NCBI GenBank assembly: GCA_001938485.1
Contig: MQRK01229322.1
Span: 4,949-68,948, forward strand
Direction: 5' to 3'
DNA: 64,000 nt
Source of the DNA: Girardia tigrina
Taxonomy: Eukaryota
Shown: in pieces, positions 25,201-28,200 of the stretch
Position numbering within the stretch: the first letter of the stretch is position 1
Layout of the letters: every line of letters begins with the position of its first letter
Notes under the pieces: generated by a model
Database searches by the model: none
Seen by the model: only the letters and a program-made list of their open reading frames with translations
What the model was told of the DNA's origin: nothing
Translations under genes and position numbers: made by a program

Positions 25201-28200
25201 ATTGTCATCCGCAGAGAGATTATGTTAAAAATTCTGAAAACAAAGATGTTCCCATTACCGATGCATCAAACATCTCAGCAATCGTCCACAAATTTCTAAA
25301 TTTCTTTCACGTGAGCAAAAACTGGCTTTTTTTCTGCATTTCTCTCTTAAAATCCGAAAAAAGATTCAACTGCCTTGAAAGCCAGAGAGCTGATATCAGA
25401 CTTTAAAATTAGAGGACAGACTTGTCTAAATGAATATCTTGTGGTCCAATCCAGTTTGCGGCCGTTGCAAGCATCTTTTTTTATTTCGAAAGGCATTTCT
25501 AAAGAGACTTGGGAAAGACGCCTGGTAAGTTCTTTGCAGACGTTGTCCACAGCTTCAAAATAAATCACAATTATTAAATTTAGAAATTAATGTTTGTTTT
25601 AATGTATCACATTAAATATACATAAAAATTGAATGTAATGAACTTTCATAATGTAGGTAGATGTAAATTTGCACATTATGTTAATTATAGGAAAAAGTAA
25701 TCAAAAAATATGAAATTTCTAATTGCACATTCATATAGAGAATTCATTTTTTCATAATTGCATGGTATGTGGTAGTCTTCTGCTGATTCGTGATAATGAG
25801 ATCCCAATACTTCTTCAAATCGTTTCGGATGACTCTTTCTGAGTGGGCGCAGGGTGATTCTGTCAGGTTTTCTGCTGCTCGTCTCTATTTTTCATGGGCA
25901 TGGTGAAATTCTTATTCTGAGCGATGTCTTTGAAGGTAGTCTCTCGGGAATTCACAATGCTCAATTCCTTTCAAAACAGTGATGTCTTTGCTCTGGAGTT
26001 TTCATGGAACAGTTTCAACAAACAAAAAAGATCAAGTGGCACAAATGCAGCCCAAAATAGTTATCAACCCACCGGATACAGATAGAAAGCTGCTCCTTTC
26101 TGCTGATATCATTCGACTCATCAGTTAACAAAGCAAAATATTTTGCTTTCCTGATGTCTACTAAAAGGTTACGAAGAAGAACCTGTCCCATAAAAGTGAT
26201 TGATTCATCCAGGATATCTGGTGAAGGGTAATTACCATCTTAAATCCAAATATCTAGTCTGTCACATTCTTCACATTTCAGATTCAATAGCTGTTGTAGG
26301 TTACCTTCTTCCCTTTCATGTCCATGAATTGCATGGCCTTGAAAGTAGGGGAATATGCGGGTTCTCTCCCACCCCCCGGGGGTAACCCGTTGCCATGGCA
26401 ACGGTTCCCGTTACCATAGCAGCGGTCACGATCACTTTAGCAACGGTTCCGATCACCCTAGTAACGGTTCCGGTTCACTTGGTAACGGTAACCAAGGTCT
26501 TATTTACCCTAGCAACTGTAACCAAGGGGCATTTTTCATTAGCAACGGATACATTGATTCAAGGCGGTTGTAACCATGGTAACGGTTACCGTTTCCATAG
26601 CAACCGAGACCTTTTCCTTGGTAACCGAAGAAAAAAGTGGTAATCGATCACTGCACAGTGCCCAGATGTGCTAATCGATACTTTAAAAGTCCTAACCAAT
26701 AGTGTACATTGTTGCGCACATTTCTAATGTGCTAGCACAGTGCTTTTTAAGTTGCACATATAAAAAAAATCAATATCATGTGTTTGATGCACCTTTTGAT
26801 TCTCTATATGAATGTGCAATTAGAAATTTCATATTTTTTGATTACTTTTTCCTATAATTAACATAATGTGCAAATTTACATCTACCTACATTATGAAAGT
26901 TCATTACATTCAATTTTTATGTATATTTAATGTGATACATTAAAACAAACATTAATTTCTAAATTTAATAAACATTTATTTCATTGAAATATAATTTTGA
27001 CACAACGCTAAACACCTTTTATAAGCACAATGTGAACCATGTTCACGATATATACAAGTAATGTTTTTTGGTATTGCTTTTAGTTTGTCACATTTATATG
27101 TGCATATTCTCAGATCAGGAAATAAAGACTTTATCAACTTTTCCTTTCGTCCGTCATCATTATCCTTGACATAGAACAATGCTTCAGTTAAATTACATCG
27201 TGATCGAATGTCTCGCATTAAACAATCCTGACAAAACTTGGTATTGTGTTCTTCCCACGTTAATTTTTGATGATGTAATGTTAAATAAGCATTTGTTCTT
27301 CGTGTTTTGTTTGAACAGCAATGCATTTTAGGTCTAGAAATTGCACCCACACATTACATTACATTTGCAACACTAATTTACCTTACTGAAATACATAATG
27401 TAATGGATTAAACATATTATCCACGGACATTATACACAACTCTTTAATCATGTACTCATCATTATTATCCACAAATCTCTCAAAATAAATAAAGAAGATA
27501 GACATTTTTCAACAATAAAAATTTATTAACATAGCAACTTTGTTTATAACAATTGGCGTTTAAGCCAGTCTATACAATAATTTCCACAAAGAAATGTTAG
27601 TGGATTTTGATATATTTCATCATTATATATGACAGGTTGTTGCATTCGTTCCAATTTTGTCACCTACGTTGATGGGTAATCTATCCCAAGTGTATCGAAT
27701 AGTCGAATAAGATCTGAAGTCACATGTACTGCAATCCAGTGTTCTCCTGGTAAATTAGCAGTCTGAGTATTAATTACATATCCTCCGCCGAGTAAATAAT
27801 CTGGAACTTTATCCAAAGAATATACTCCACGGAATTGAGGATATCCTTTCAGTGCTTTTTCAATCTGATATGTACAATATATGTAAATATAAAAGGTTTA
27901 GATACAACTTACTTCATATATTATTTCTGTTCGTAATTGCTGTTTACAGTTCTAATACTGTGTTTATACAATAACTGTACCATCTTTTCGTATTTGTATC
28001 TCACTATCAAATACTCCATATACATACATTGTAATTGCCTTATCTAATACCTTGTGGAATCTTAAATCCAATTTTAAATTGCCTGTTCGTAGTATTTGTA
28101 TTTGATCAACATCAAAATTAGGTGTCAAGGCAAATGTAAAGTAGGGGTATTTTGTTTTGAAATCATCCATAGTGATTCCATTATTCATATTTTTATTCAC

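Follow-up and report, generated by a model that had tools for sequence, protein, structure and literature searches.

RFX (EF-C) sites occur in the enhancers of polyomavirus and hepatitis B virus, NFI and Oct-1 serve at the ends (ITRs) of adenovirus, and oriented, phased repeats beside a terminus are typical of replication origins and transposon ends. The segments of the Bidnaviridae have shared ends. Polintons/Mavericks (adintoviruses) are described in PMC8502044 and PMC11071308, and the accessible part of the former presents the Bidnaviridae as bipartite viruses with a Polinton-derived pPolB. Concerning the host factors, PMC11344851 gives, in its available sections, GTTGCCA-TGGCAAC as the word of most RFX factors and CCTAGCAACA as that of RFX5/RFX7, and both this paper and PMC8287911 place RFX5/RFX7 sites near NF-Y CCAAT boxes. 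The SXY module has a fixed order and spacing (PMC7866136; PMC2278383, excerpts), an X-Y spacing rule of 17-18 bp is given in PMC7753138, and the mouse Btn2a2 module is printed in the supplement of the same paper. Finally, the LTR12/ERV-9 end carries host-factor sites and is reported to be open in spermatogonial stem cells (PMC11802806, sections available). In the literature searched, we found no account of RFX/X-box arrays in Polinton ends and no title on a split Polinton; Repbase, subscription journals and bioRxiv supplements lay outside this scope and may hold one.

The window analyzed here, a stretch of 64,000 nucleotides from Girardia tigrina, contains a Polinton element at 26344-31365, with termini AGTAG/TTACT and a TSD (CTTGAA/CTTGAC) matching at 5 of 6 positions (Table 1). 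It lies inside a 15.4-kb stretch flanked by two Lig_chan exons, as revealed by domain search. This copy is a dead insertion and a decayed member of a polymerase-less Polinton class; no integrase is visible in it, its middle being an assembly gap. A segment of the inner left end (26799-26971) has a 100% identical inverted copy of 173 bp outside the element (25571-25743), an agreement so complete that it points to an error of assembly or to a duplication of very recent date. The host site of the Polinton (26015-26239 and about 31391-31878) looks like a hAT-type transposase remnant, with a DUF4371 match in the left flank. Further mobile remnants were observed at 22503-24586, 33173-34477, 35330-37150 and 2134-2934; their types comprise a reverse transcriptase element, a zinc-finger ORF, a BED-finger hAT-type transposase and a Tc1-type transposase.

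Table 1. Features of the Polinton copy and of its immediate setting (window coordinates).
Feature	Coordinates	Strand	Basis or remark
Presumed iGluR-like gene intron holding the element	22243..37634	+	GT at 22243, AG at 37634
Left TSD copy, 6 bp, CTTGAA	26338..26343	.	Terminus inspection
Left terminal inverted repeat, AGTAG terminus	26344..26880	+	Inner part missing, shorter than in sister copies
Perfect RFX palindrome GTTGCCATGGCAAC	26389..26402	.	Same 14-mer in the accessible part of PMC11344851
Variable array of five 21-bp units followed by two of 30 bp	26389..26546	+	RGYAAC closes each unit (AGCAGC by decay in one of them)
Second series, in the single-copy block	26570..26625	+	Boxes 1-2 kept in the family, box 3 not
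'orf110', truncated; Cys/His-rich Polinton gene family	26976..27353	-	Neutral evolution in the polymerase-less class
Maturation cysteine protease gene fragment (presumed)	27664..27897	-	GEHW motif; no Pfam match
Double jelly-roll major capsid gene, C-terminal third (assignment by model)	27964..28350	-	Sister-copy comparison, capsid model of L051
Assembly gap	28546..28814	.	Rest of capsid gene, minor capsid and integrase absent or concealed
Foreign fragment resembling the retroelement of 22503-23522 (both presumably Penelope-like)	28815..29110	-	ORF/domain comparison
Packaging ATPase gene, N-terminal part	29110..29481	-	Walker A
Two small genes of unassigned function (85-aa ORF; acidic repeat ORF)	29502..30232	-	First genes behind the right end
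Inner right end	30300..30819	-	Contains TATA-like words and two palindromes of the form GGTTA-N3-TAACC; sister copies have it, inverted, at the left end
Right terminal inverted repeat	30820..31365	-	X-box array at about 31100-31330
Right TSD copy, CTTGAC	31366..31371	.	Terminus inspection

The initial annotation had described both ends as phased arrays of X-box-like palindromes. All 12 of the motifs that it listed carry the right letters where it had placed them. Its first series runs in exact 21-bp steps, with RGYAAC halves at 26397, 26439, 26460 and 26481 and the decayed AGCAGC at 26418, although the starts given as 26431, 26452 and 26473 were one base early; the second 21-bp series, with halves at 26578, 26599 and 26620, is as described. 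Only some units are palindromic, most being one-sided and of the ATCACCyTAGCAAC type. Half-sites RGYAAC number 14 in 26344-26640 (shuffle mean 1.0) and 12 in the right end, 31100-31366 (mean 0.8), and none of 2000 dinucleotide shuffles reached either count, nor that of full X-box patterns; array units being copies of one repeat, these counts demonstrate an array and not independent events. The unit at 26612 is not conserved in the family, as C/A core letters are found in 29-32 of 48 copies, and the best right-end box of the window copy carries two changes.

The arrays are a trait of a whole family of ends. The exact terminus AGTAGGGRAAAAATG occurs 11,027 times in the genome (control, 8), and more than 5,000 elements are present in the assembly. 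Among 30 termini picked by the terminus alone, 14 had too little room for the X-box test, and all 16 with at least 110 bp of room contained an X-box within one mismatch. The pattern GTTRCCATGGCAAC gave 33,974 strand matches genome-wide (control, 2), which, as palindromes count twice, correspond to 17,000-34,000 near-perfect X-box sites, or about 28,000 should the first 100 rows be representative; duplicated haplotypes in the assembly may inflate these figures. All 49 loci picked by pattern belonged to the same end family, and 47 of 55 termini started with AGTAG. The first box stands 45-65 bp from the terminus, and an end can hold up to about 15 half-sites, predominantly one-sided and all in the same orientation. 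The length of the array up to the inner block ranged between 137 and 380 bp in 24 complete arrays and changes by whole units. Neighbouring gaps were of 21 nt in 113 of 243 cases, the next commonest being 30, 51, 42, 52 and 31, and unit lengths (21/30/31-32 bp) are near whole helical turns. Joints of 31, 41-42, 51 and 73 nt indicate that unit numbers turn over fast.

Sequence conservation inside the ends was uneven. In 48 copies of the single-copy block, the G-AAC core (12 columns) showed the majority letter in 95.5% of cases, vs 88-89% elsewhere (permutation p 0.003-0.006, kinship among copies being ignored), and the R and Y positions were no looser than the core. In the array zone, 61% of non-motif columns were also devoid of shared variants. 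Among 73 units picked by their neighbour, variation was found at box positions 1, 3, 7, 9 and 11 (R, Y, W, R and mostly C), which are the loose positions of the X-box consensus, and the 7-bp spacer was about as constant as the box (71-95%).

A second motif accompanies the boxes in many sister ends, namely the Y-box CTGATTGG, with 42-47 of 47 copies agreeing per column and next letters that are mostly pyrimidines. It follows AAC at 25 nt (27 cases) or 24 nt (6 cases), and the combined pattern TAGCAAC-N24/25-CTGATTGG had 6,365 matches in the genome and none for the reversed control. Y-boxes are optional (8 of 24 complete arrays); the ends of the window copy have none, its variable array included. 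Measured from AAC to ATTGG, the distance is 27-28 nt, vs 26 nt in the mouse Btn2a2 module by our own count. The published 17-18 bp rule converts to 27-28 nt only with an assumed X2 boundary. The X-Y spacer reads GGTCGCG/GGTTCCG, presumably unlike the word of a CREB-bound X2 box. Judged by these motifs, the pairing in sister ends appears close to the RFX5/NF-Y module; a 21-bp array gives a set phase by chance about 1-3 times in 21, and since all arrays go back to one ancestral unit or to a few of them, the motif match, the phase and the X-Y spacing represent few independent events.

The candidate readers are encoded by the host. The one-sided units agree with the RFX5/RFX7 word CCTAGCAAC, and the 14-mer of the window is identical to the palindrome published for RFX. 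The genome encodes an RFX1/2/3-type domain 81-90% identical to named RFX proteins (the best, 90%, for an RFX exon being with Schistosoma) and two further RFX types, thus three types, as well as NF-YA. One NF-YA match (L467) lies in DNA whose GC content is unusually high here and may not belong to the host. The PF02257 profile had 6 matches genome-wide, none of them on the element despite its hundreds of copies, and no winged-helix family (RFX-type or D5) was found in the element ORFs scanned, in which the parent class was read in part. As the host has RFX and NF-YA genes and the element no recognizable RFX domain, the reading of the initial annotation, in which host RFX is recruited to the ends, is likely; it is further in line with the matched published word and the set distance of the NF-Y motif, and it lost its extension to Polintons in general and to exaptation by the receptor gene.

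We hypothesize that host RFX, plus NF-Y where Y units exist, probably occupies the arrays and opens the end as an enhancer-promoter. The terminal arrays would act as a landing pad for host RFX proteins, with NF-Y helping in many copies; chromatin would be opened, and the genes starting behind the ends would be switched on. The bound factors could perhaps also help the protein-primed polymerase to reach the terminus 45-65 bp away. Contigs assembled from one recorded and three presumed RNA runs covered 30 of 30 bins of a 9-kb element, and two of these runs 29-30 bins of a polymerase element; because contigs reveal neither strand nor level and a silent control was lacking, this coverage was not counted as evidence. 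Germline timing of element activity, also evoked by the initial annotation, would rest on analogy: the available parts of PMC11802806 link NF-Y to spermatogonial stem cells and cite planarian NF-YB work, those of PMC9522251 list planarian rfx7 and NF-YA motifs, and the subject of PMC4408798 is, in its accessible part, piRNA clusters.

X-boxes had been put forward as a feature of Polinton TIRs across taxa, to be sought in related ends. They are present in the family itself, as seen above, and absent, within two mismatches, from the 6 elements of three other Polinton families of the genome in which both own ends were visible (14 contigs of other polymerase types were considered). Therefore, they are not a general Polinton trait. 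In IMG/VR, the phased X-box pattern was found in 0 stretches and capsid relatives numbered 0; for the X-Y pattern there were 120 matches, all of them single and without a full X-box, which were read as chance. No full X-box was detected among 76 metagenome relatives, few contigs of which reach an end, so that other taxa were barely sampled. One of them, a distant unsplit Polinton (L348, Ga0208428_1000404; capsid 29% identical), starts (1-330) with a repeat of ATGACAA units holding three sites at three mismatches, followed by CATTGG and TATAAAA; shuffles had at least one such site in 19 of 1000 and three in 0 of 1000. This possible independent use of the same host factors is a lead only.

Another Polinton family of the genome carries GCGCCAAT about 25 bp from an AGTAGT terminus (C188483:3864, C210886:13860, C254979:6768), which we take to be a CCAAT word beside an E2F-like word. 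Two metagenome Polintons (L316, ~4000-4500; L319, ~3750-4230) have a PELFPAL/NVFASGK ORF, presumably TBP-like, directly after the orf110 relative. Relatives of orf110 begin with YFIDF(Q/E)GF, a motif that flatworm copies do not have, and an atlas search with orf110 and the 85-aa ORF gave no usable match. The idea that these elements target the ends of other Polintons was dropped, because they lie beyond the ends that belong to those elements, and repeats of this sort are where contigs break.

The family turned out to comprise three classes with the same ends: a polymerase-bearing parent, a 9-kb polymerase-less class, to which the window copy belongs, and a 6-8-kb polymerase-only class. The polymerase-less class is best illustrated by sister copy L051 (9,045 bp end to end; TSD 5 of 6), which carries on one strand the ATPase, an integrase with chromodomain (rve E 8e-13), minor and major capsid genes, a protease and small ORFs; it was read end to end and has no pPolB. 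The ATPase had weak P-loop matches only and the protease was assigned by motif only; the minor capsid, protease and core-protein labels are our assumptions from motifs and gene order. The capsid model (pLDDT 87.7) best matched iridovirus, PBCV-1 and virophage capsids, with E down to 1e-16, and on this model the major capsid is a double jelly-roll. Among 30 copies picked by likeness to L051, an end followed orf110 within 125-585 bp in 26 and pPolB in none. Conversely, none of 31 stretches around the family polymerase contained capsid-module genes; an inward end was found upstream in 14, downstream in 19 and on both sides in 7. One further contig holds both kinds with an end between them and is read as nesting. 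C239909 (L426, L427) appears to hold a capsid-bearing element with a polymerase-only element nested inside its capsid gene. Some polymerase-only copies (L103, L091, L107, L102) have an inverted region of up to ~2.4 kb, which can include the inverted polymerase 3' end, and approach a foldback structure. At first look, the polymerase C-terminus had 3,545 candidates, orf110 had 640 and the capsid had 414 by loose counting; compared with the 11,027 termini, these figures (414-3,545) indicate that gene-less derivatives appear to keep arrays.

A family without unsplit form was considered and then abandoned, as the first 30 loci were biased to the polymerase-less class and the parent class emerged in the divergent tail. 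In the parent, protease, orf110 and the same polymerase type stand in tandem. Of 150 scored matches, 63 were parent copies; among 30 that were examined, 25 run into the polymerase 5' region. Two copies terminate in an end with X-boxes, which they reach across scaffold gaps. Parent and polymerase-only genes share 75-78% DNA identity, most changes being at third positions. The pPolB tree (19 rows, unrooted) did not decide the origin of the polymerase-only class, which was settled by the parent-class loci. In parent copies L500, L501 and L503, the polymerase follows orf110 on the same strand; the arrangement is convergent in four metagenome relatives. In its 5' part, the parent polymerase gene seems to be interrupted by a short break that resembles an intron.

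For pPolB (14 polymerase rows with the upstream end seen), 50 of 69 shared variants fell at third codon positions; the capsid had 7 of 10 there and the protease 7 of 9 (both from verified polymerase-less copies). About one third of singletons were at third positions, as under neutrality, and orf110 was neutral (6 of 19). As far as codon positions tell, this pattern shows that capsid, protease and pPolB have been under purifying selection, which refers to past selection and not to present activity. The bias indicates that both halves spread from master elements whose proteins were useful at the time. The two halves have complementary gene sets on separate elements with shared termini, and in the inner ends the likeness is 87% from one half to the other and 89% within a half. 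Selected proteins in both halves together with shared ends suggest a Polinton becoming segmented. That the halves would complement each other in trans, with shared RFX/NF-Y ends switching both on in the same cells, is a tentative and doubtful extension of this suggestion; common ends would then allow the two halves to be expressed and replicated together. The unsplit parent persists in the same assembly as both halves, and each half may instead depend on it.

Other readings of the arrays have to be weighed against host-driven transcription. The nearest variant is that host RFX binds as a cofactor of the replication origin or of integration targeting and not as a transcription switch. The position of the first box 45-65 bp from the terminus, the presence of arrays at both ends when genes start behind only one, and their apparent retention by gene-less derivatives (11,027 termini vs 414-3,545 gene candidates) speak for such a role, which we nevertheless regard as unlikely, since the NF-Y partner and the TATA-like words further in are promoter features and an array length of 137-380 bp suits an enhancer better than a rigid origin. 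The units could also be iterons read by a protein of the element itself, be it the integrase, the terminal protein/polymerase or a winged-helix protein that escaped the scan, their RFX likeness being convergence. Consistent with this are a spacer as constant as the box, oriented and phased repeats adjoining the terminus as in origins and transposon ends, a weak match between the RFX domain and PF03288, the D5 winged helix of viruses (E 0.025), and ends that are 87% alike between classes vs 89% within, as expected of cis-sites read in trans. But the ORFs scanned have no RFX-type or D5 domain, and orf110 relatives look by motif Cys/His-rich and nuclease-type, a fold that we assume for them. In addition, iterons would leave the second, independent host motif unexplained, and related elements with similar integrases do not have such arrays where sequence is available. 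We thus hold this reading to be clearly unlikely.

It might further be argued that no protein reads the array, which would be a slippage-born minisatellite or a hairpin-forming end derived from one chance palindrome. Fast turnover of unit numbers, a left end that folds better than shuffles (z -2.5, 2 of 200) and a motif match that rests on few independent events would agree with such an origin. Yet mostly one-sided, same-direction units do not favour hairpins, core columns are better kept than their neighbours, and two distinct host motifs with near-invariant cores are hard to reach by drift, which makes this origin distinctly improbable. Co-option of the insertion as an RFX enhancer of the glutamate receptor gene, raised by the initial annotation because the element lies within the receptor intron, is hardly credible: this is one among more than 5,000 elements, its best right-end box has two changes and it has no Y-box. 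Moreover, when its two ends are compared, mismatches are about as frequent in half-sites as at the remaining bases (4 of 48 vs 34 of 285), so that the boxes decay like the rest of the ends and exaptation is unsupported.

On the question of how, and in which cells, Polintons are switched on, this family offers named candidate host factors in an animal group ready for RNAi. The co-occurrence in one genome of an unsplit parent and two complementary, selected halves is also relevant to the origin of segmented viral genomes. For the host, 17,000-34,000 near-perfect sites for a regulator of cilia genes could dilute RFX or seed enhancers; if a segmenting Polinton with RFX ends is indeed present, its tens of thousands of X-boxes would be the largest RFX sink in the host genome.

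Compared with known systems, the family shares with Polintons/Mavericks the AG termini, long inverted ends and 6-bp duplication, as well as the double jelly-roll capsid (here predicted from a model), rve integrase with chromodomain, ATPase and protease, and the gene order is the same in its metagenome relatives; it differs in that the window class has no pPolB and the sister class only pPolB. As in the RFX5/RFX7 and NF-Y module (MHC class II SXY), a one-sided half-site of the CCTAGCAAC type precedes a same-strand ATTGG Y-box by a comparable distance (27-28 nt here vs 26 nt in Btn2a2; PMC7753138, supplement), whereas the sites, predicted here, are repeated many times, mixed with full palindromes and located in a mobile element end, with no evident X2 box in the arrays. 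Similarly to the RFX sites of polyomavirus and hepatitis B virus and to NFI/Oct-1 in adenovirus, a DNA virus end or enhancer would borrow a host factor, but single sites are present there and phased arrays of up to ~15 half-sites per end here. LTR12/ERV-9 NF-Y enhancers are likewise mobile element ends carrying host-factor sites; these are, however, retroviral LTRs, centred on NF-Y, for which binding has been shown. The Bidnaviridae resemble the split family by a Polinton polymerase on its own segment. Unlike these ssDNA viruses with parvovirus-like capsids, both halves come here from one integrating Polinton, and the unsplit parent class persists in Girardia tigrina.
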